This document shows positions 1,896 through 57,847 of a stretch of DNA of 64,000 nt, one piece after another. This DNA comes from Candidatus Saccharimonadales bacterium. GTDB taxonomy: Bacteria; Patescibacteriota; Saccharimonadia; Saccharimonadales; JBGSXW01. The stretch lies in NCBI GenBank assembly GCA_041751215.1, contig JBGSXW010000002.1, positions 286,591-350,590 on the forward strand, in the 5' to 3' direction. The notes beneath the pieces were generated by a model, which was not told the origin of the DNA, made no database searches, and saw only the letters and a program-made list of their open reading frames with translations. Every line of letters starts with the position of its first letter. The first letter of the stretch is position 1. The position numbers and the translations under genes were made by a program.

Positions 1896-3316
1896 CGTTT
1901 AACCTCGATGGTAGCTTTGTCCATCATCTTAGCCTTGCCGGCTGCATAAGTTGCGTCGTCGGTAACTTTGGCTGCTACGCTGTTTGCAATCGACTTCATG
2001 CCCTCGATATCAACAACTGCATTAGGAGGAATGTCGAGTGTGGCATCAAGCATGAGCTGTTGGGCTGTAACAGAGTAGCTCTCGCCTGGAGCCTGCGTAA
2101 ATATTTCGAATAAGTGTTGTCCGAGCTCTAAGTCTTTTCTAACTTCAAGTGCTAACTCCGAGCCAAAGTGAGAAAATTCAGCCGCTCGTTTGTATTCGCT
2201 TAAAGCCCGAATAACACGGTCGCCTAGCAGCTTTTGCCGAGCGCTGTGCCCGCGCCCACCAACACGAGATACCGAAAGCCCAGTGTTAATTGCTGGTCTG
2301 GTGCCGTCCCTAAAAATCTCCATGTCAAGAATTAGCTGCCCATCGGTTATAGACATGATGTTGGTTGGTAGATAAGCTGTTACATCGCCCCCAGGAACCA
2401 ACACAATTGGCAGGGCGGTTAACGATTTGTGACTCGATTTTAGGCGGCCGGCACGCTCAAGCAAAGACGAGTGAGCAAAAAACATGTCGCCCGGATACGA
2501 GTCGCGGCCTGGATTTCCGTTAGCTAGCAGCGATATCTCTCTGTAAACCAAGGCGTGTGAAGTCAGGTCGTCGTAAATAATAATGACGTCTCGACCCTTT
2601 TCTTGCCAAAGATACTCAGCCAGTGAGCAGGCAACGTATGGTGCCAGGTAAGACATCACCAGCGAATCAAACATCGTAGAAACTAGTACGATCGAGTTTT
2701 TAAGCGAATCATGTTCGCCAAGTTTTTTTAGCAAATCATCAACATCAGCTCGTCGTTTAGAAATAAGACAGTAAATTACAATTCGGTCGCTGTTTTTTTG
2801 ATTAAAACCGAGTTGGCTCATTAGGGTGGTTTTGCCAGACTTACTGTCGCCGAGCACGGCGATGCGCTGACCTAGCACGATTGGAAACAAAGCATCAACA
2901 GACGTAATGCCGGTTTCTAGTTGCTGACCTAGCAGCTCGCGCTCCATGATTCCCGGTGCTTTATTAAACACTGGCCAGGTCGCATCGGCTGCAATGGCTC
3001 CTTTGCCGTCGAGCGGCTGTCCGGTCGCAGAGACAACCCGGCCAATGTAGTCCTCACCAACTTTGGCAACTAGCTCGTGGTGCTGAACCACCACGCCCAT
3101 GCCAGTTGTTAGCGGCTTGCTGCCAAGATGCAAGGCCACGGTGTTGTCCTCGTTTACGACATGAACGACTCCTTTGCTACCATCGGCAAACATCAGTAAC
3201 GCCTGAGCAGTAACCGGCTGTAAGCCACGGATAGTAACCAAAAAGCGGTTAATAGACATTACCTCGCCAACCGGCTGACCCTGATCTACTAAGTATTTGA
3301 AGTGCTTGTTAGCCAT
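1892..3316 (-). CDS. atpA: ATP synthase F1 alpha subunit
   Basis: 474 aa with Walker [11 protein letters not shown], an alpha-type core ([17 protein letters not shown]) and the expected operon position. Confidence 0.95.
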
Positions 3317-3318
3317 GA

Positions 3319-3825
3319 CTAGCTACTGATTTCTTTCATGACTTTTGCAAAGGCGGTGGTGCTACGGTTTAGCTTAGTGCGAATCGCCCAGTCGTAGCGA
3401 CGCTTACTGGTGTGTAAAACGCAGCCGGCAGCGATTGCTGGCTGAACTCCAAGCTGAACAAGTACTTGTGGATGAACTTCTTTACGAAACCACTCAACGA
3501 CCTTAGACATCGAGTCATCTCCGGGCTCGCCGGCCAAACTTAAACGAACTCGAGGCGCTTGAGTTCGCAGTTGGTGCAGCTGCCGAGAAACTTGCGGCAA
3601 AGTTTGCTCATCAAATTCTAAACCGTTAACCTTAAACAAATCCGATAGACGCACGCCCGGTCTGCTAATTGATCGTTCTGCTCCGGCTTGTTCTTTGGCA
3701 ACTCTGGCTTGCAGCAGCTCCTCCACTAGCCGATCGGCCTCTCGCTCTAAATGCAGCAAGTCTTGTGGACCAACCACAGAGGTTGGTAACTTAAGAGCAA
3801 TAATTGCTGGCTGCTTAGGCTCCAC
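3319..3825 (-). CDS. atpH: ATP synthase delta (OSCP) subunit
   Basis: 168 aa between the b and alpha genes. The call rests mainly on size and operon position; sequence similarity is weak. Confidence 0.65.
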
Positions 3826-4435
3826 TCTTCACATCCTCGATTATATCTTTCTTGTTGTCTTCAAGGTGTTTGAGGACGTAATCTAGCTGATCGCTCAAAT
3901 CGAGCTCAGATCCGATGGCTTCGATAATGTAGTGATTCAAAATCTCGCCCATGTTTTGCTCAAACTTAGTGATGAGCTGGGTTTTCTCGGCCTCAACTTG
4001 CTGCTTGAGTTGTTGTTCTAGCTGCTCTCTTTGTTGTTCGATTGCGACTTGAGTTCGCTGGATTGACGCCACAGCTTGTTCTTTGGCATCATTGATCGAA
4101 ACTTCGTACTTAGCAAATTCTTGCTGAAGAACTTTAGTGAGCTCCTCTTTCATATACTCGTGCAGCTGGGAGGTTGTTAGCCGCAAGTCTTGCTGTAAAA
4201 AGTCCGCGTTTTCGGAGATGATTTTTTCGAAGTAGAGTCGGCCACGGTTTCGCAGTTCCTCACGAAAATCCTCGTTAAAAATCCGCTCCACATCCTCTTT
4301 GGCGGCATCAACAAGATCATCGCCTGATTTTTTCTTGTGGTGACGTCCGCCGCGAAGTGACATGGCAGCCCAAATAAAGCAAAGTGTGGCAGCTAAGATT
4401 GCAGCTATTAAAATGGCGAATTGATATGTTTCCAT
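3815..4435 (-). CDS. atpF: ATP synthase F0 b subunit
   Basis: A single N-terminal TM helix (FAILIAAILAATLCFIWAAM) followed by a long charged coiled coil, in the expected operon position. Confidence 0.7.
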   Translation of the reverse strand: METYQFAILIAAILAATLCFIWAAMSLRGGRHHKKKSGDDLVDAAKEDVERIFNEDFREELRNRGRLYFEKIISENADFLQQDLRLTTSQLHEYMKEELTKVLQQEFAKYEVSINDAKEQAVASIQRTQVAIEQQREQLEQQLKQQVEAEKTQLITKFEQNMGEILNHYIIEAIGSELDLSDQLDYVLKHLEDNKKDIIEDVKSGA

Positions 4436-4785: not shown

Positions 4786-5553
4786 TCAGCCCTCGAACAT
4801 GTGCGGCTTGCCGCGAGGTTCGTCTGGTGTGTCGATTTTTTCGCCGCGGCGAAAACCCCAGGGCCCACCGGCCAGCCAAACCTTTCTCGGCTGGCTCTCC
4901 ACCTCGATTGGCGGGTCCTTGGCGAAGTCGAACTGATCGACCTCGTCGTCGGGGAAGCCCGCAGTATTCCCGCAGCTGGGGCAGGCGTAGCCGGAGCCGG
5001 CCTTGACCATGGGAACGCCGCAGGTCATGCACATCGGTGCCTCCGATGCCAGCGTGGTCGGGTCGTCGTCGACGGCACCGACAGGCGGGTTGGCACCGAT
5101 CGCTTCCGAGAAGTCGTCGAAGACCTTGTCGGGGACGTCGGCGTCCAGAGCCTCGGGGCCACGGAGCATCCGATCGACTTCGGCTTCGGCGCCCTGGAGG
5201 GGCACGACGTCGCGGTCGACATCGGTCTCGGACGTCATCACGGCACGGACGCGGAAGCTGATGTTGCCCGGGATGACCTTGTCACGCAGGCAGTCAGCAA
5301 CCTTGACGAGCAGCGGTGGTCCGATCTTGTTCGCGTCGGCGGGACACGACGCTGTGGGCCAACCGACCACCACGGTGATCTGGCGATCGCCGCTGTCGTA
5401 GGGACCAGCCTCGCTGAACGTTGTGTCGCACACGGATCGATCGAGCTGCTCCATCACGATCTTGGGAAGCTCGTTGGCCAGACGGTCAAGGTCCATGGAG
5501 CTGAGGACCGAACCGCGAAAGTTCGGGTAGTAGTGAACGTGGACCGACAACAT
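4786..5553 (-). CDS. Hypothetical acidic protein with a C-terminal-half zinc ribbon (GC-rich island)
   Basis: 255 aa with RBS AAAGGAG and the ribbon CMTCGVPMVKAGSGYACPSCG. About 63-70% G+C by hand count of two lines. The overlapping long ORFs on both strands are shadows. Confidence 0.7.
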   Translation of the reverse strand: MLSVHVHYYPNFRGSVLSSMDLDRLANELPKIVMEQLDRSVCDTTFSEAGPYDSGDRQITVVVGWPTASCPADANKIGPPLLVKVADCLRDKVIPGNISFRVRAVMTSETDVDRDVVPLQGAEAEVDRMLRGPEALDADVPDKVFDDFSEAIGANPPVGAVDDDPTTLASEAPMCMTCGVPMVKAGSGYACPSCGNTAGFPDDEVDQFDFAKDPPIEVESQPRKVWLAGGPWGFRRGEKIDTPDEPRGKPHMFEG

Positions 5554-6824: not shown

Positions 6825-6886
6825 CGTATCTAGTATATCGTATTTGGTATACCGCGAGATACGAGATACTTATTGCTAGATACTAA

Positions 6887-7252
6887 TTAGATAGCAGGCT
6901 GTCGGTGATAGACTTCTTCGGTCACGCGCTGATAATAAACTCGGGCTGCTTGGAGCAAGTTTTGTAGCTCTTGGCCACGCACGTAGTGATACTGTTGGCC
7001 GTCTTGGACTTTTACTACTCCGGTTGGGCGAATTTCGTATCTGGTAGTTACCGACTGCTCTTGTCCGTTGGCATCGGTCCAACCCTCGTACCAAACCCAA
7101 GTTTTTGAGTCCAGGCAAAAGAAGTCACGTCGATGTCCTTTTGGCACATGTCCAAACAGCTGGCCACCGATCTTTGCTTCTTGCTTAATAAGGCTGCGAA
7201 CAACGTTTTTGGCCTTTGGTGGTGTAAAAAACTGTGTAAGTTGAGTAAACAT
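6887..7252 (-). CDS. Hypothetical protein
   Basis: 121-aa ORF with backbone composition in a co-directional gene block. No motif recognised. Confidence 0.55.
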   Translation of the reverse strand: MFTQLTQFFTPPKAKNVVRSLIKQEAKIGGQLFGHVPKGHRRDFFCLDSKTWVWYEGWTDANGQEQSVTTRYEIRPTGVVKVQDGQQYHYVRGQELQNLLQAARVYYQRVTEEVYHRQPAI

Positions 7253-7261
7253 AGCTTCTCC

Positions 7262-7540
7262 TTACGCCGCCAGTTGGCGGGGCTCCTCGGCTGCTGCCGT
7301 TAGTTCGCGCTGGGAAATAACTAGGTCGCTGATGTAGCCAAGCTGGGTGGCAATGTAGGCTTCTTGTTCCGGTGTTAGCGGTGCTTGTTCTGCGGTAGCT
7401 ACTGGTGTGGTTTCTTGGCCTGGAACCAATGACACAACTGATTGGGGCGGATTTGTGATAACTGGAGCAACATCAAATCTTGGCACCTCATAAGTGCCGT
7501 CTTGAAGCTGTTCCGGTGATACAAACTGTCCGTCTGCCAT
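7262..7540 (-). CDS. Hypothetical protein
   Basis: 92-aa ORF tightly packed between neighbouring genes. No motif recognised. Confidence 0.45.
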   Translation of the reverse strand: MADGQFVSPEQLQDGTYEVPRFDVAPVITNPPQSVVSLVPGQETTPVATAEQAPLTPEQEAYIATQLGYISDLVISQRELTAAAEEPRQLAA

Positions 7541-7552
7541 GTTGTCTCCTTG

Positions 7553-8341
7553 TTACAGGTTAAAAAGTCTAGTGGCGTTTGCTGAGGTGGTATCGGTTAG
7601 CGTACTAATCGACTCCCCTCTTAGCTTGGCCAAGAACTCCGCCGTCAACACTAAGTGTTTAGGCTGGTTTATTGTACCACGTTTTGGGCTTGGGGTCAAG
7701 AATGGTGCATCCGTTTCTAGTAGCAGCCTCTCTTGTGGCACGGATTTGGCCGCCTCCAACTGACGTTCATCGCCCGTAAACGTCATGATCCCATTTAGCC
7801 CCACGTATAAGCCACGTGATATTACACCTGTTAACTCTGGTTGTCCAGCGGAAAAACTATGAACAACGCCGCGGATTTGCTTACCCTTAGCGTCATACTC
7901 ATCCAAAATTCTGAAAAAGTCAGTAAAAGCATCGCCCGGGTTGGACTTGCTGCCTCGGACATGAAAGATAAGCGGCAGGTCACTCTCTAGTGCTAGGTCT
8001 ATTTGCCACTTAAACAAAGTTTCCTGAATCTGTCTGGGCGAATGCTCATACCAGTAGTCAATACCGGTCTCGCCGACCGCTACAACTTTAGGGTCTAGTG
8101 CAAGTTCGGGCAAGCGACTGGTTTTAACATCGAAATGTTTGGCCTCATGCGGATGAATTCCAACAGTCGCCCAGCAATTTTTGCGGTTAGCTGCAAACTC
8201 GATGGCTAAGGCAGTGTCGCTCTCATCTGTTCCGACGCAGATAATTTTACCCACTCCAGCATCGAACGCGGCTTTAAAAACCTCGTTTGAGTCTAACTGA
8301 TAGTCTTCTGAATGAATGTGACAATGGGTATCAATTAGCAT
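7553..8341 (-). CDS. tatD: TatD-family metal-dependent hydrolase/DNase
   Basis: Starts MLIDTHCHIH and contains GETGIDY, VHSFSAG and LLLETDAPFL. Confidence 0.9.
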   Translation of the reverse strand: MLIDTHCHIHSEDYQLDSNEVFKAAFDAGVGKIICVGTDESDTALAIEFAANRKNCWATVGIHPHEAKHFDVKTSRLPELALDPKVVAVGETGIDYWYEHSPRQIQETLFKWQIDLALESDLPLIFHVRGSKSNPGDAFTDFFRILDEYDAKGKQIRGVVHSFSAGQPELTGVISRGLYVGLNGIMTFTGDERQLEAAKSVPQERLLLETDAPFLTPSPKRGTINQPKHLVLTAEFLAKLRGESISTLTDTTSANATRLFNL

Positions 8342-24184: not shown

Positions 24185-24259
24185 GGCCCCTTCGTCTAAT
24201 GGTTAGGACACCAGGTTTTCATCCTGGCAATAGGAGTTCGATTCTCCTAGGGGTCACCA
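24185..24259 (+). tRNA. tRNA-Glu (anticodon TTC), CCA encoded
   Basis: Cloverleaf read by eye: acceptor GGCCCCT/AGGGGTC, anticodon loop TTTTCAT, T-arm GGAG-TTCGATT-CTCC. Confidence 0.9.
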
Positions 24260-24420
24260 ACAAAAAGCCTCGCCCTTGTGGTGAGGCTTTTTGTTGGTAG
24301 CTTTATGCGAATCGAACTTCGTAGCGCGTAGCGCGGAGTTCGCTATTCAAGCGAGCCCGCAGATGCTCGCATCGAGGACGAGCGAAGAATATATCATATA
24401 TTCTCCTATTCCCTGTTGTG
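24260..24420 (+). repeat. tRNA-trailing GC-rich module, Glu copy (split pseudo-T-arm)
   Basis: CCA-sequestering hairpin, then H1 GAACT-tcgta-GCGC-gta-GCGC-gg-AGTTC, then GGAGTTCG (the tRNA-Glu T-stem 5' strand plus TTCG), then a 57-nt conserved insert, then ATTCTCCTA (the rest of the tRNA-Glu T-arm). Confidence 0.75.
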
Positions 24421-24427
24421 GATACGG

Positions 24428-47504: not shown

Positions 47505-48467
47505 TTGAAGATTCTCAGCAGTAAGCTCTTAGCAGTTACTCTCTCATTGGCTTTTATGTTCGGCCTTGCGGGTCTAGTAAGAGCGTCTCATCCCACTGTT
47601 GAACTTGGTACAGCTGAAAATTTTGCAATTTTAGCCGGAACCGCCATAAGTGATGTTCCGACTTCTACCGTTATTGGTGATGTTGGCCTGCACCCAGCTG
47701 CTGGCTCGGCAATTACTGGTCTGACTTGTGCAGGAGTAACTGGAACAATCTACGATGTAGATGGCACTTTTGCTGGTGCCTGTGAAGTAGAAGACGAGCC
47801 CCTCTTAAATATCGCCAAGCAGGACTTGGTAACCGCTTATGACGATGCAGCTGGACGAACGCCGGTTACCACAATAGCCACTGAGCTTGGTGGTCAAACC
47901 TTAGTTGATGGCACCTATGATTCTGATTCAACGACCTTCACAATTTCGGCTGGATCAGGTCCACTTGTGCTTGATGGTGGAGGCAACCCAGATGCCGTAT
48001 TCATCTTCCAAATGGACTCGGGCGCGACCGGACTAGTAGTCGGTCCAGGCAGTGAGGTAGAACTTATAGGTGAGGCTCAAGCTTGTAATGTCTTCTGGCG
48101 ACTGAACACTGCAACGATTGATACTGCGGCAGTCTTTAAAGGTACGATCTTAGCCCTAACTTCAATCACAGTTGCCGACGGTGCTGAGATTGAGGGAAGA
48201 TTACTGGCTCGCAACGGTAGCGTAAGCTTGATCAACGACACAATCACCGTACCGACAACCTGTGTCGCCGGTGACTCCGATGATTCAGACGACTCCGATG
48301 ACGACACTTCTACCAATGACACCACTCCAGGCTTCCCAAACACCGGGTTTAGTAACGAAAACTCCACCGATGATCTATGGAAGTTAATCCTGCCAGCTGG
48401 GTTTATTGTTGGCCTAATTTCGTTATATCTTGTTCGAAGAAACCGTGCTGCTCAGCACAAACAATAG
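47505..48467 (+). CDS. DUF3494 (ice-binding-like beta-helix) surface protein with sortase signal
   Basis: TTG start after AAGGTG, a signal peptide, and ENFAILAGTAISDVPTSTVIGDVGLHP. The C-terminus has FPNTG, a TM helix and RRNR. Confidence 0.75.
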   Translation: MKILSSKLLAVTLSLAFMFGLAGLVRASHPTVELGTAENFAILAGTAISDVPTSTVIGDVGLHPAAGSAITGLTCAGVTGTIYDVDGTFAGACEVEDEPLLNIAKQDLVTAYDDAAGRTPVTTIATELGGQTLVDGTYDSDSTTFTISAGSGPLVLDGGGNPDAVFIFQMDSGATGLVVGPGSEVELIGEAQACNVFWRLNTATIDTAAVFKGTILALTSITVADGAEIEGRLLARNGSVSLINDTITVPTTCVAGDSDDSDDSDDDTSTNDTTPGFPNTGFSNENSTDDLWKLILPAGFIVGLISLYLVRRNRAAQHKQ

Positions 48468-48479
48468 AAAAGTCGTCCC

Positions 48480-49088
48480 TTGAGCTTATCAGCTAAGCTA
48501 GTCGCTTCTGCCGGCGGCTTATTGGTTAGCCTGGGAGCCGTCTTCGTATTTTCAGTTTTTATGGCCCAGCCGGCTACGAACATAGCCCCTAATCCAGGTT
48601 TAGGGGAGCAACATGCAGCACGTGCCAATAAAAATGCCGACTTTGGTTTGCCAGTGCGTCTAAAAATTCCCGCACTCAAAATCAATGCCCCTATAGCCCC
48701 TGTGGGCACTACTCCCGAGGGGGATATGGAATCACCAAAGGGTCCCGACGACGTTGGCTGGTATAAGCCAGGCCCTCATCCAGGTAACACCGGTACCGCT
48801 GTACTTGCTGGGCATTACGGTCGTTGGATCGATGGTAGGCCCTCAGTTTTTGATAATTTACATAAGTTAAAAACAGGCGACATCATCTATACCATAGACG
48901 CAAATGGAGCGTCAGCCGCCTTTGTAGTGCGCGGACAACGGACTTACGGGCAGAACGAAGAAGCTCAAGATGTTTTTGTTTCCAAAGATGGGCAAACCCA
49001 TCTTAATCTCATAACCTGCGAGGGAGATTGGAGCGAGGCTGAACAAACTTACTCCAAACGGCTAGTGGTGTTTGCTGATGGAGTATAA
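48480..49088 (+). CDS. Sortase (class F-like)
   Basis: N-terminal TM helix, LAGHYG, and the catalytic LITCEG. It lies immediately downstream of a sortase substrate. Confidence 0.85.
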   Translation: MSLSAKLVASAGGLLVSLGAVFVFSVFMAQPATNIAPNPGLGEQHAARANKNADFGLPVRLKIPALKINAPIAPVGTTPEGDMESPKGPDDVGWYKPGPHPGNTGTAVLAGHYGRWIDGRPSVFDNLHKLKTGDIIYTIDANGASAAFVVRGQRTYGQNEEAQDVFVSKDGQTHLNLITCEGDWSEAEQTYSKRLVVFADGV

Positions 49089-49178
49089 AAAGCAAGCAGT
49101 TGGTGTCTCTTGTTGAAATAAGAATACTCGATCGATCGGCAAGATAGTGCACGCTGGCAGGCCGATCGATCAAGTGCT

Positions 49179-49353
49179 CTGGTACGCCCGGACGGATGGA
49201 CCTTCGGTCCGCTTCCTCATGTGCTCGATGCGAGCATCTGCGCACACTCGTCACGAACGAACCGACTGCTTCGCAGTATGCGGTTCAAATCCGTGCTCGA
49301 GAGAATCGAGCTGAAAAATAAAACCACCCGCAGAGGGTGGCTTAATTTTTCAG
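49179..49353 (-). repeat. tRNA-trailing GC-rich module, Arg copy (bounded by 19-nt direct repeat)
   Basis: Plus-strand CTGGTACGCCCGGACGGAT occurs at 49179-49197 and again at 49354-49372 (the tRNA-Arg 3' end). H1 spans 49258-49286 and the 60-nt insert spans 49198-49257. Confidence 0.8.
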
Positions 49354-49354
49354 C

Positions 49355-49431
49355 TGGTACGCCCGGACGGATTCGAACCGCCGACCCCTTGGTTCGAAGC
49401 CAAGTACTCTATCCAGCTGAGCTACGGGCGC
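49355..49431 (-). tRNA. tRNA-Arg (anticodon TCG), CCA encoded
   Basis: Minus strand GCGCCCG...CTTGG-CTTCGAA-CCAAG...GGCGG-TTCGAAT-CCGTC-CGGGCGT-A-CCA. Confidence 0.9.
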
Positions 49432-57590: not shown

Positions 57591-57676
57591 GCAGGGTTAG
57601 TGAAGCGGTCAAACACGGCAGACTGTAAATCTGCTGGCTTATGCCTTCGTAGGTTCGAATCCTACACCCTGCACCA
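57591..57676 (+). tRNA. tRNA-Tyr (anticodon GTA), long variable arm, CCA encoded
   Basis: Acceptor GCAGGGT/ACCCTGC, anticodon loop CTGTAAA, T-arm GTAGG-TTCGAAT-CCTAC. Confidence 0.9.
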
Positions 57677-57847
57677 AACTAATAATCCGGCCGGAGGTCG
57701 GGTTTTTAGTTTGGTATTGAGTTTAGAAAGAGAACCGTGTCCGCCGCAGGCGGAAGGTTCGGTGGAGCAGGAACACGCGCAAAAGTTTACTTTGAGCATG
57801 TGACTGCGGAGAAGGACGAAGTCCGCTATCCCTCTCCCTGCACCAAA
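57677..57847 (+). repeat. tRNA-trailing GC-rich module, Tyr copy
   Basis: H1 GAACC-gtgt-CCGCC-gca-GGCGG-aa-GGTTC (57732-57760), a 66-nt insert, then ATCCCTCTCCCTGCACCAAA (57828-57847), which matches 17/20 nt of the tRNA-Tyr 3' end at 57659-57678. Confidence 0.7.

Follow-up and report, generated by a model that had tools for sequence, protein, structure and literature searches.

tRNA 3' external transcribed spacers act as small RNAs, as is the case of 3'ETS-leuZ in Escherichia coli. The same bacterium carries the rtT repeats, which were reportedly sequenced in 1978. These 178-bp repeats of the tyrT operon are represented in Rfam by RF00391 (RtT, gene rttR), the reference used in this work. An rtT unit is composed, in this order, of an antisense segment (GGGGAAGGAT), the sequence GAGAACCTT-CGAC-TAAGGTTCG, an insert of about 68 nt consisting of C-GNA-G hairpins, and AATCCTTCCCCCACCACCA. 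The function of RtT is unsettled, and mobilome coverage hints that the number of rtT units may change under stress (bioRxiv 10.1101/2024.07.17.603846); our full-text search of the literature gave nothing new on this point. The annotated E. coli rttR terminates exactly at the copied CCA.

Hairpins are also recognised in single-strand mobile DNA, such as the palindrome-associated elements derived from IS200/IS605 and the attC sites of integrons. Here we describe a tRNA-Arg locus of a Candidatus Saccharimonadales bacterium and compare it with these systems.

The tRNA-Arg locus

The window, i.e., the whole stretch of 64,000 nt that was analysed, contains five tRNA genes according to ARAGORN, none of them within the module described below. 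One is a tRNA-Arg(TCG) gene with an encoded CCA, located on the minus strand at positions 49355-49431 and supported by Rfam (tRNA, 66.2 bits) as well as by its match to a 19-mer. This 19-mer, CTGGTACGCCCGGACGGAT, has exactly two occurrences in the window (49179-49197 and 49354-49372 of the plus strand), and no third one appears even when up to three mismatches are allowed. A chance repeat can be ruled out since none is expected (100 shuffles), and the perfect 19-nt direct repeat of the tRNA-Arg 3' end described in a previous, sequence-only reading of this DNA is confirmed at both positions. The copy at 49354-49372 is formed by the final 18 nt of tRNA-Arg and one flanking base. The second copy, also read on the minus strand, corresponds to nucleotides 59-76 of tRNA-Arg (ATCCGTCCGGGCGTACCA, 49180-49197), the first flanking base (49179) being also identical. 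Both 19-mers are separated by 156 nt (49198-49353) devoid of ORFs, in agreement with the statement that the enclosed segment, of about 150 nt, encodes nothing. All the inner elements that had been listed for it, namely a terminator-like hairpin, the fold-back hairpin H1, a 60-nt core called M, and a GGACC-GAA-GGTCC stem-loop against the repeat, were located in this segment.

A hairpin that is terminator-like on both strands lies right after the CCA (49309-49355, minus strand). Its core stem (49321-49343) is followed by a T-run, and its extended stem begins with the terminal A of the CCA. Comparable hairpins are present behind nearly all the Saccharibacteria tRNAs examined, the T-run being weak or absent where another tRNA comes after the module. 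A small hairpin not conserved in other copies (GCTCGA-TTCTC-TCGAGC, 49295-49311, minus strand) is located between the terminator and the module.

The Arg module (49180-49294) begins 61 nt past tRNA-Arg and is on the same strand. It starts with the 5' strand of P0 (ACGGAT, 49289-49294, minus strand), which is antisense to the 3' half of the T-loop and the start of the 3' strand of the T-stem. In the minimum-free-energy fold (-53.9 kcal/mol, z -2.25) this strand and the ATCCGT that starts the copied tail form the stem that closes a four-way junction. Over the whole T-arm, antisense matches counted by eye amount to 15/18 at Arg; this was rejected as a general feature because it holds for Arg and some other copies, P0 being variable across the family.

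The next element is H1 (GAACCG-CATA-CTGC-GAA-GCAG-T-CGGTTCG, 49258-49286, minus strand), with an inner C-GAA-G hairpin at 49266-49276. The 3' strand of H1 is the tRNA's own T-stem 5' strand followed by GTTCG (T-loop nucleotides 53-57), and its 5' strand is the antisense of this sequence. M (49198-49257, minus strand) is a conserved core of 60 nt placed between T-loop positions 57 and 58, as defined by alignments A1-A3, RNAalifold and pair counts. It contains, on the same strand, P2 (49219-49247), constituted by a stem, an internal loop (5' GCA / 3' GA) and a 4-bp hairpin with a tetraloop, and P3 (GGACC-GAA-GGTCC, 49198-49210), which directly adjoins the repeat. A kink-turn in the internal loop was discarded because the positions needed for the sheared G-A pairs covary as Watson-Crick pairs. 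As had been proposed, the in silico deletion of M rejoins the T-stem 5' strand and GTTCG to ATCC, the T-stem 3' strand, the acceptor and the CCA, with the junction in the T-loop.

A GC-rich palindrome had been reported just outside the repeat. It is indeed present, between the Arg module and the stop codon of a convergent sortase gene, and its position must be corrected: the arms are at 49129-49140 and 49161-49171 (whole element 49129-49171) and enclose a loop of 20 nt, instead of spanning about 49123-49166 around 21 nt. On the minus strand a T-rich stretch follows it, and it lies where many copied CCA ends (14/33 loci) have a second terminator; a simple terminator scan did not call it, its loop being too long. 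No promoter was predicted within or beside the Arg module. A promoter-like sequence, TTGCAT-17-TATATA, was seen in one sub-type of modules and is not general.

A family of modules behind Saccharibacteria tRNA genes

The existence of other module copies, also anticipated from the sequence, was corroborated. The window contains four homologous modules, located behind tRNA-Glu, tRNA-Lys, tRNA-Arg and tRNA-Tyr, when none is expected by chance; there is no module behind tRNA-His. A covariance model built from the modules of the window (CM R1) gives 87 bits for the Arg module. The module of tRNA-Glu(TTC) (24185-24259) is at 24306-24426 of the plus strand (65.5 bits), with M intact and the acceptor part of the tail decayed. 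That of tRNA-Lys(CTT) (40970-41046), at 41095-41213 (plus strand, 78.9 bits), has a partly decayed tail and shares its sub-type with the Arg copy. The module of tRNA-Tyr(GTA) (57591-57676), at 57724-57845 (plus strand, 89.7 bits), has a tail that coincides with the last nucleotides of its tRNA in 15 of 20 positions.

When CM R1 was applied to about 580 kb of Candidatus Saccharibacteria DNA, 96 copies were found behind tRNAs of at least 17 identities. Fifty-one locus matches, covering some 17 identities, lie 21-74 nt behind a tRNA of the same strand. In a scan of genome collections, the matches listed came mostly from Candidatus Saccharibacteria MAGs.

Each copy resembles the end of its own tRNA. 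The segment that follows M matches it in 14-19 of 20 positions in most cases, versus about 10/20 for the ends of other tRNAs, and, starting at the CCA end, identity extends over 18 or 19 nt in 25 of the 33 intact copies and over more in none. Similarly, the bases just 5' of GTTCG show a mean matching run of 2.8 with the own tRNA and of 0.87 with other tRNAs. GAAC and GTTCG of H1 are invariant in alignment A2 (35 sequences) and are kept in at least 90 of the 95 distinct CM matches, the two adjacent pairs being covariant. The covariation of M and H1 is strong: taking both together, 94.2% of the cells are paired versus 75.7% in shuffles, and cells with double changes number 274 versus 81, while slid controls are 21-48% paired. 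In the per-pair table there are 25 G-U versus 12 A-C pairs, a doubtful end pair being excluded.

About a quarter of the modules lack the acceptor tail. High CM R1 scores persist where the tail has decayed, as shown by the Glu and Lys copies already mentioned and by those of loci L105 (78.3 bits), L031 (71.1 bits) and L028 (70.1 bits). The preservation of M next to decayed acceptor copies indicates that M is under selection in place and is more than debris. Of 85 matches to the M core, 80 have GTTC upstream, three are degenerate modules and two are chance matches in coding sequences; none of the 85 is a true core outside a pseudo-T-arm context. Every true M core sits behind a tRNA end or derives from one.

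Roughly half of the tRNA genes sampled are occupied, and M-type modules are absent from about 40% of the tRNAs in the sampled loci. The presence of a module behind the same tRNA varies among species. The one comparison of an empty with a filled site, between loci L059 (empty) and L112 (filled) of different species, is compatible with boundaries at the repeat on the basis of about 13 nt of flank homology. With respect to the Arg neighbourhood, exact protein matches led to one contig of 8 kb that ends at the tRNA, the nearest MurB relative (70% identical) is on a 2-kb contig, and the neighbouring HTH protein was found in three distant metagenomic loci, all of them without tRNA or module. Module repeats can break assemblies at tRNA genes.

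Three modules are located inside tRNA operons, 3-14 nt ahead of the next tRNA, and their first hairpin has no good T-run. Transcription must consequently cross these modules. In tandem arrays, the distal copies are more degenerate. The duplication has a fixed end at the T-loop and a variable one, situated from 1 to about 45 nt past the CCA: the copied sequence continues beyond the CCA into the terminator in L057 and L032, beyond the CCA in L103, and also in L054, where it forms a perfect 60-nt repeat. Other, unrelated types of insert follow the same logic.

Cassettes of accessory genes lie between some tRNAs and their modules, and a T-loop-like piece, AGTTC(C/G)A...CCA, together with a terminator closes each cassette. 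The cargo proteins include GNAT, C5 methylase, PLD-like, ABM and aminoglycoside-nucleotidyltransferase-like proteins. In L053, an ORF of 327 aa is placed between two units of terminator, module and copy that are 100% identical. The idea that the Arg segment behaves as inserted DNA is well founded in the variable presence among species, the duplication past the CCA, and the cassettes between tRNA and module.

No Rfam family corresponds to M, and the Arg region has no gathering-level match beyond the tRNA itself. Neither full-text searches of the literature nor Rfam release 15 yielded a description of the Saccharibacteria element. If this negative result holds, the conserved folded trailer element found behind many Saccharibacteria tRNAs is previously undescribed.

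Comparison with rtT repeats and other systems

The modules have the architecture of the rtT repeat units. Both are located in the 3' trailer of a tRNA gene or operon and both end with the last 18-19 nt of their own tRNA, including the CCA, from T-loop positions 58/59. In both, GAGAACC..loop..GGTTCG (H1) repeats the T-stem 5' strand before an insert of about 60-70 nt, this insert, at T-loop 57/58, consists of C-GNA-G hairpins, an upstream antisense segment pairs with the copied tail, and tandem copies exist. CM R1 aligns in full length and in register with the four E. coli rtT units, with scores of 20.4 and about 12.4 bits. The Tyr module gives a weak Rfam RtT match at 57795-57845 (13.3 bits, the gathering threshold being 45), while the Arg region has no RtT match at E<=10, and nowhere in the window does an RtT match attain the gathering score. 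A known RNA family was discarded, because there is no match at the gathering score and, save this weak RtT signal, those at E<=10 are noise.

There are also clear differences. The conserved M core (P2 with its 5' GCA / 3' GA loop and tetraloop) is not shared by RtT. In E. coli the repeats are associated with one tRNA, whereas the Saccharibacteria modules follow tRNAs of at least 17 identities throughout a bacterial class and, unlike RtT, usually have a terminator-like hairpin between the tRNA and the module. The similarity to rtT is one of architecture only.

In the spacers of the 3'ETS-leuZ type a functional RNA is cut from the trailer of a tRNA transcript, as may also be the case of the modules, but those spacers lack a copy of the tRNA end and a fold conserved throughout a family. 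IS200/IS605-derived elements and attC sites are, like the modules, small, ORF-less and hairpin-rich, with structure conserved over sequence; insertion beside a short motif (GTTCG), the lack of a short target duplication around M and the GAAC/GTTC half-sites are further points in common. However, M is absent from other GTTCG sites, no TnpA or IntI partner was seen in the 64 kb of this genome and the 8-kb pieces of others that were covered, and the module flanks match each tRNA. A free-roaming miniature element targeting GTTCG, dispersed as those of the IS200/IS605 type, was rejected because M is never found outside the module context. TIGR arrays (PMC12045711) were also discarded, their 36-nt units being unrelated to the modules.

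Islander-type attR fragments (PMC4383910) coincide with the Arg locus in the direct repeat of the tRNA 3' end and the T-loop junction and, for some related loci, in the presence of cargo and of arrays at a single tRNA. They differ in that the Arg unit has only 156 nt and no integrase, its core is common to many tRNA targets, its T-loop is not duplicated at both junctions, and an antisense fold-back is present.

Origin, maintenance and possible role of the modules

We interpret the Arg segment, with a probability of roughly one half, as an RtT-like tRNA-trailer element that arose by a duplication or insertion anchored in the T-loop and is maintained in the form of a folded single strand, probably RNA. 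The originating event would copy the tRNA 3' end and sometimes part of the terminator, one boundary being fixed at T-loop 58/59 and the other being variable. The repeat would therefore be a target-type duplication and not the crossover core of an integrase site. H1 and M would be held by purifying selection as a folded single strand of tRNA sense, which is partly shown, with the acceptor tail free to decay.

The acting form is most likely RNA rather than single-stranded DNA. Transcription from the tRNA promoter would read through into the module, and the resulting RNA would be trimmed to the copied CCA, as in the annotated E. coli RttR. Triloops of the C-GNA-G type are classically known for their high stability in DNA. 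Covariation gives the same signal for RNA and for single-stranded DNA. A strong hairpin resembling an intrinsic terminator is located between the tRNA and most modules, that of Arg included, and transcription of the Arg copy may be slight given this hairpin ahead of it and the lack of a predicted promoter. The modules could act as stable or processing-related trailer RNAs; as a by-product, they might constitute conserved anchors beside which cassettes of accessory genes accumulate. The loss of the acceptor tail in about one in four modules argues against a function that needs the CCA end. The absence of modules from some 40% of the tRNAs and their variation among species fit a mobile or dispensable element, and the copies that are in tandem, degenerate or beside cargo have the appearance of selfish DNA.

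The sequence-only reading had likened the junction to the attR of an element that integrates in the T-loop. The attR scar of one conventional island carrying an integrase is not supported, since the same covarying core is found behind at least 17 tRNA identities with each copy matching its own tRNA, and since the T-loop is not on both sides of M, as it would be in the product of a tyrosine-recombinase crossover. On the other hand, neither of the two observations that would have refuted that reading was made: the sequence between the repeats in other genomes is mostly related (the same M), and the second 19-mer belongs to no detectable degraded tRNA. A generalised version of the integration idea, that of a miniature site-specific integrative element, is unlikely. 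It would be a cargo-less element moved by a recombinase acting in trans at the T-loop/3' end, the 19-mers being attL and attR and H1 plus M the conserved recombination arm, which the enzyme might recognise in a folded single-stranded form, as happens with integron attC. The repeat of the tRNA 3' end with its T-loop junction, the cargo arrays with small accessory genes between tRNA and module, the identical units around the 327-aa ORF of L053, the unrelated inserts of the same logic and the differences in presence among species are all in its favour. However, a single arm would need to work on at least 17 different tRNA targets whose sequences match in each case, T-loop overlap on both sides of M is missing, M is intact where the att-like tail has decayed, and a double-stranded circle of 175 bp is an implausible intermediate.

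The search for enzymes does not favour this version either. Forty proteins (30 from the window and 10 cargo proteins from related loci) were scanned against Pfam, and no integrase, transposase or reverse transcriptase was found among them. A motif regex, which is a weak test, detected no tyrosine recombinase in all the fetched module loci (about 580 kb). A strict module pattern searched in 2.9 million viral contigs gave no true copy, which also counts against an integrative element. The four matches obtained are in high-GC coding sequence with no tRNA nearby, and a viral or phage origin was rejected.

A selfish element that is not autonomous, that enters through target-primed or single-strand copying and whose fold serves its own mobility and not the host, is in our opinion still more doubtful. 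In one version, a module transcript or a single-stranded DNA has a tail equal to tRNA nucleotides 58-76; this tail would anneal to the nicked tRNA gene and be copied in, so that the element would home to its own tRNA and build tandem arrays. A duplication with one end fixed and the other variable is the pattern of staggered nicking or target-primed copying, and the tail that matches its own tRNA, the arrays with more degenerate distal copies, and the lack of a short target-site duplication flanking M itself point in the same direction; C-GNA-G hairpins are typical of single-stranded DNA substrates. Nevertheless, neither reverse transcriptase, HUH nor other enzymes were found among the proteins scanned, the M core never appears at other GTTCG sites, unlike IS200/IS605-type elements with a 5-nt target motif, and an intact M beside a decayed tail implies that selection acts in place, not that the copy is young. 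This mechanism does not account either for the match of H1 to each new tRNA.

Very improbable, although based on the same architecture, is that the modules are programmable tRNA-specific nucleic-acid devices, in which both T-arm strands and the acceptor 3' strand surround the core at T-loop 57/58. Such a device could be a guide, similar to bridge or dual-strand guide RNAs, that directs a trans enzyme to nick or recombine its own tRNA gene, and in this way it could build the cassette arrays found behind some tRNAs. It could also be a spare 3' end: when a tRNA has been cut in the T-loop or tail, the module would pair with its 5' two-thirds and restore it in trans or after joining. Finally, a degraded tandem duplicate in which the second 19-mer is the remnant of another tRNA-Arg with an insertion is largely refuted: the T-stem 5' strand with GTTCG and the T-loop 3' part with T-stem 3' strand, acceptor and CCA are both present in the right order, but there is no tRNA match for 49120-49360 on either strand (Rfam, E<=10; ARAGORN), the sequence 5' of the T-stem copy is antisense instead of a D-arm or anticodon arm, and the same non-tRNA core M is behind at least 17 tRNA types.

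Significance for Saccharibacteria

Read as RtT-like trailer elements, the modules would be the first elements related in architecture to the E. coli rtT repeats, whose function and origin remain without an accepted account, and with approximately 95 diverse copies both the fold and the invariant bases can be put to the test. The T-loop 58/59 boundary common to E. coli and Saccharibacteria points to a shared mechanism that copies tRNA 3' ends. Module repeats can be mistaken for integration scars, and their association with cassettes suggests how these bacteria, which are reduced and host-dependent, may gain genes. If the element is undescribed, a whole bacterial class carries, behind roughly half of its sampled tRNA genes, a conserved, covarying element of about 120 nt, each copy of which is tailored to its own tRNA.

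The Repeat Behind tRNA-Arg

The 19-nt direct repeat described in the sequence-only reading is real: CTGGTACGCCCGGACGGAT is found at 49179-49197 and at 49354-49372, and at no other site in the window even when 3 mismatches are allowed (0 expected in shuffled sequence). Since tRNA-Arg(TCG) was located at 49355-49431 on the minus strand by ARAGORN and Rfam, the second copy corresponds to tRNA nt 59-76 plus one flanking base. All the parts that had been noticed in the 156 nt between both copies are present. Read on the tRNA (minus) strand, these are a hairpin starting from the terminal A of the CCA (49309-49355, core 49321-49343), with a terminator score in either direction; a short hairpin that is not conserved (49295-49311); the fold-back hairpin H1, GAACCG-CATA-CTGC-GAA-GCAG-T-CGGTTCG (49258-49286); and the 60-nt core M (49198-49257), whose GGACC-GAA-GGTCC end abuts the repeat. 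A palindrome does lie beyond the second repeat copy as well, its arms being at 49129-49140 and 49161-49171, slightly displaced from where it had been placed.

The T-loop junction, the duplicated tRNA end and the inserted DNA were correctly recognized. However, the scar of one single integration is too narrow an explanation, the Arg module being one member of a family. With a probability of about one half, the Arg segment can be considered an RtT-like tRNA-trailer element (RtT, Rfam RF00391, comprises the rtT repeats of the E. coli tyrT operon) that arose by duplication or insertion anchored in the T-loop and is retained in folded single-stranded form, probably as RNA.

The terminator hairpins behind the window tRNAs (24260-24295, 41047-41090, 49309-49355 and 57677-57715) have stems that contain the discriminator and CCA of the tRNA itself, e.g., ACCAACAAAAAGCC..GGCTTTTTGTTGGT. 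The same design is present in most related loci, often again after the copied CCA. Being symmetric, with both an A-run and a T-run, they are bidirectional.

Copies and Distribution

In the window, tRNA-Glu, tRNA-Lys and tRNA-Tyr are each followed by a module of the same layout as that of Arg, and tRNA-His is without one. The four copies share 65% column identity in their alignment, and a pattern of their invariant bases matches exactly those four window sites (0 expected). In one-genome-per-species contigs this pattern matches at least 115 loci, of which most of those listed belong to Candidatus Saccharibacteria/Saccharimonadia MAGs; 51 locus matches sit 21-74 nt 3' of a same-strand tRNA, and these tRNAs are of about 17 identities. 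Viral contigs gave chance matches only, and high-GC matches from other phyla, with no tRNA nearby, were also discarded as chance. The covariance model R1, made from 35 copies (alignment A2), yielded 96 matches in 73 low-GC loci and the window, exactly four of them in the latter. The family is absent from Rfam and is not described in the literature searched.

Among 114 tRNAs with enough downstream room, a sample biased by the way the loci were found, 60 are followed by an M-type module, seven directly by another tRNA and 47 by neither. The same tRNA can carry or lack a module depending on the species, as occurs with Val-TAC, Leu-TAA and Leu-GAG. Tandem modules also occur, the distal copies being more degenerate. 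The fetched locus L094 contains, within 8 kb, four modules with tRNA-Gln-type tails (5-108, 167-275, 4262-4377 and 6873-7007) that flank large surface-protein-like ORFs, and no tRNA-Gln gene.

The Copied tRNA End

In most loci, the stretch after M is identical to the last 20 nt of its own upstream tRNA at 14-19 positions, compared with about 10 when the end of another tRNA is taken. Measured back from the CCA, identity covers 18 nt in 15 of 33 copies and 19 nt in 10 of 33, with no longer block in any of them, which puts the start of the copied tail at T-loop position 58/59. The invariant GTTCG that borders M on its opposite side represents tRNA nt 53-57, so M sits precisely between T-loop nt 57 and 58. 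The bases 5' of GTTCG follow the T-stem of the own tRNA (mean run 2.8, at least 2 in 53/55 copies; 0.87 for other tRNAs), and H1 carries the complement of this T-stem plus GTTCG stretch as its 5' strand. In the Arg copy and some others the antisense reaches the whole T-arm (15/18 by eye), and in the predicted fold of the Arg copy this extension base-pairs with the first nucleotides of the tail, closing a four-way junction. Judging from these sequences, M is lodged in a copy of the last 30 nt of the tRNA, folded back on an antisense strand.

Fold and Selection

In RNAalifold analysis of a MAFFT alignment, compensatory pairs are already apparent; those of stem P2 of M are AU15/GC10/UA9, GC23/UA6/AU4/CG2, GC17/AU16 and AU19/UA15, and those of H1 are CG21/UA10 and CG17/GC6/UG4/UA2. 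Among 95 distinct R1 matches, 94.2% of the cells pair (75.7% in shuffles) and 274 cells show double changes (81 in shuffles); sliding the pairing partners lowers pairing to 21-48%. The bases invariant in A2 (GAAC, GTTCG, CGCA, G..T..C and GAG.A) are kept in at least 90 of these 95 matches; G..T..C is a G-C-closed tetraloop, mostly CUUG, and M has an internal loop of 5' GCA and 3' GA. Such covariation argues that the module fold is under selection. G-U pairs are more frequent than A-C pairs (25 against 12, leaving out a doubtful end pair), which mildly favours folding of the tRNA-sense strand. Covariation cannot separate RNA from single-stranded DNA. Modules with decayed or deleted acceptor tails (window Glu and Lys; L105, L031, L028, L018 and L013) keep intact cores and high R1 scores, suggesting that H1 and M are maintained in place and that the tail is dispensable. 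None of the true core matches places M away from the pseudo-T-arm; the unit is therefore the whole module and not a free insertion sequence.

Comparison with E. coli rtT

The Tyr module gave a sub-threshold match to Rfam RtT (13.3 bits). In tyrT-tyrV-rttR of E. coli K-12, the rtT unit has four parts: GGGGAAGG(A/G)T, antisense of the T-stem 3' strand and acceptor; an H1, GAGAACCTT-CGAC-TAAGGTTCG, carrying the T-stem 5' strand of its tRNA and TTCG; about 68 nt of inserted C-GNA-G hairpins, among them GAGCGAAGCGAC, a sequence shared with stem P3 of the Saccharibacteria; and AATCCTTCCCCCACCACCA, which is tRNA-Tyr nt 58-76. With filters off, R1 aligns full length and in register with all four rtT-like units on the minus strand of NC_000913.3 1286200-1287900 (511-625, 689-803, 867-981 and 1164-1278 of that piece), with scores, in descending order, of 20.4, 12.5, 12.4 and 12.3 bits. 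The top score belongs to a fourth unit, located in the tyrT-tyrV spacer, which also has the cleanest H1.

Both systems share the architecture, the 57/58 boundary and the tandem units. However, the P2 core of the Saccharibacteria is not common to E. coli rtT and the Rfam threshold is not reached, so the element is treated as RtT-like, outside RF00391 proper. The literature consulted describes how RtT acts as unknown (bioRxiv 10.1101/2024.07.17.603846).

Transcription

A strong T-run hairpin (6-7 T in 8 positions) precedes most modules, including that of Arg (43/58 terminal modules), and neither strand of the Arg module has a predicted promoter. In L021, L098 and L104 the next tRNA lies 3-14 nt past the module and the first hairpin is absent or without a good T-run, so transcription must cross the module. 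By analogy with RttR, whose annotated gene spans 171 nt from 7 nt past tyrV to exactly the copied CCA, trimming of such a transcript would stop at the copied CCA, or RNase P would cut it at the next tRNA. C-GNA-G triloops are present in bona fide RttR RNA as well.

Origin of the Modules and Alternative Explanations

A duplication or insertion anchored in the T-loop would lay down the module. In L054, behind tRNA-Leu(TAA) (7271-7358), a different 102-nt insert, beginning with the antisense T-arm sequence TGGGACTTGAAC, lies between perfect 60-nt direct repeats (region 7359-7580). Each repeat starts at T-loop C56, takes in the CCA and the complete terminator and stops at CAAGG; the arrangement has the look of a similar event of very recent date. 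Duplication past the CCA also includes about 22-25 nt of terminator in L057 and L032, and shorter extensions in L103, L048 and L098. Other, unrelated inserts, of about 110 nt behind tRNA-Val(TAC) (L028, L097, L105 and L009) and behind tRNA-Asp in L110 (minus strand; reverse-complement positions about 2880-3075), likewise terminate in a duplicate of the local tRNA 3' end, e.g., GGTCGAGTCCCTCAGCGCCCACCA, with slightly different T-loop boundaries; the logic is thus not tied to the M core. The flank of an empty tRNA-Leu(TAA) in L059 resembles the one downstream of the second CCA in L112, which is filled (87% over 31 nt, 18 of these being tRNA), which is only suggestive of an empty and a filled site.

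Modules also evolve in concert. The tRNA-Leu(CAG) (5322-5408) and tRNA-Leu(GAG) (3255-3340) modules on the minus strand of L021 are 100% identical over H1 and M (about 125 nt) but have their own acceptor tails and different first hairpins, indicating recent gene conversion confined to the shared part. Linkers can likewise be common to modules of different tRNAs in one genome.

Accessory genes stand between tRNA and module, or between modules, in L110 (tRNA-Asp array), L066 (3497-4704), L081 (3014-3929), L053 (minus strand), L062, L085, L071 and L005. They encode GNAT, C5 DNA methylase, PLD-like, ABM, aminoglycoside-nucleotidyltransferase-like and IMPase family proteins and several without Pfam match. 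Each cassette ends in a T-loop-like AGTTC(C/G)A...CCA piece and a terminator, and in L110 each one begins with a TTGACA..TATGAT promoter-like site directly behind a copied CCA.

A cargo-less site-specific integrative element would agree with the T-loop junction and the repeated tRNA end, and is a fairly unlikely alternative. No recombinase was detected by Pfam among 40 proteins (30 from the window and 10 from related loci), and a motif scan of the fetched loci, a weak test, gave no tyrosine recombinase. Those from the window are products of ordinary chromosomal genes (including MurB, FolD, SHMT, aminoacyl-tRNA synthetases, glycolytic enzymes and sortase), with no integrase, transposase or reverse transcriptase. 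A fixed end at the T-loop with a variable other end would be expected from staggered nicking or target-primed copying, not from a tyrosine-recombinase crossover. This geometry is also what a selfish element that entered by target-primed or single-strand copying might leave, a rather improbable reading. A tRNA-specific guide or spare-end device is very improbable. A degraded tRNA duplicate can practically be dismissed, since neither ARAGORN nor Rfam (E<=10) detects a tRNA in the segment.

The window is syntenic with the Saccharibacteria loci L034 and L074. In L034 (about 3081-3519), tRNA-Arg(TCG) and tRNA-Lys(CTT) form a tandem pair between FolD and MurB, separated by 112 nt, and just one module is present, behind Lys. 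The window has the tRNA-plus-module stretches of Lys (40970-41213, plus strand) and Arg (49180-49431, minus strand) in convergent orientation; both modules belong to one sub-type, and between the two stretches lie about 8 kb of genes, for homoserine O-succinyltransferase, a Mur ligase, an ice-binding-like protein and a sortase. The comparison suggests that DNA was rearranged or inserted here, with tRNA and module sites as breakpoints. At 47505-49088, an ice-binding-like domain protein (PF11999) is encoded directly upstream of a sortase gene, and the two are probably a sortase substrate and its enzyme. The only other assembly with the neighbouring HTH protein, Logan contig SRR28170463_323348, ends about 66 nt past that gene, at tRNA-Arg, so short-read assemblies may be interrupted by the repeats of tRNA and module.

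The module behind tRNA-Arg belongs to a family marked by its class-wide distribution, its tailoring to each tRNA, its strong covariation and its unexpected architectural tie to E. coli rtT. Through that architecture, the modules of the Saccharibacteria are connected with a known but poorly understood kind of element.
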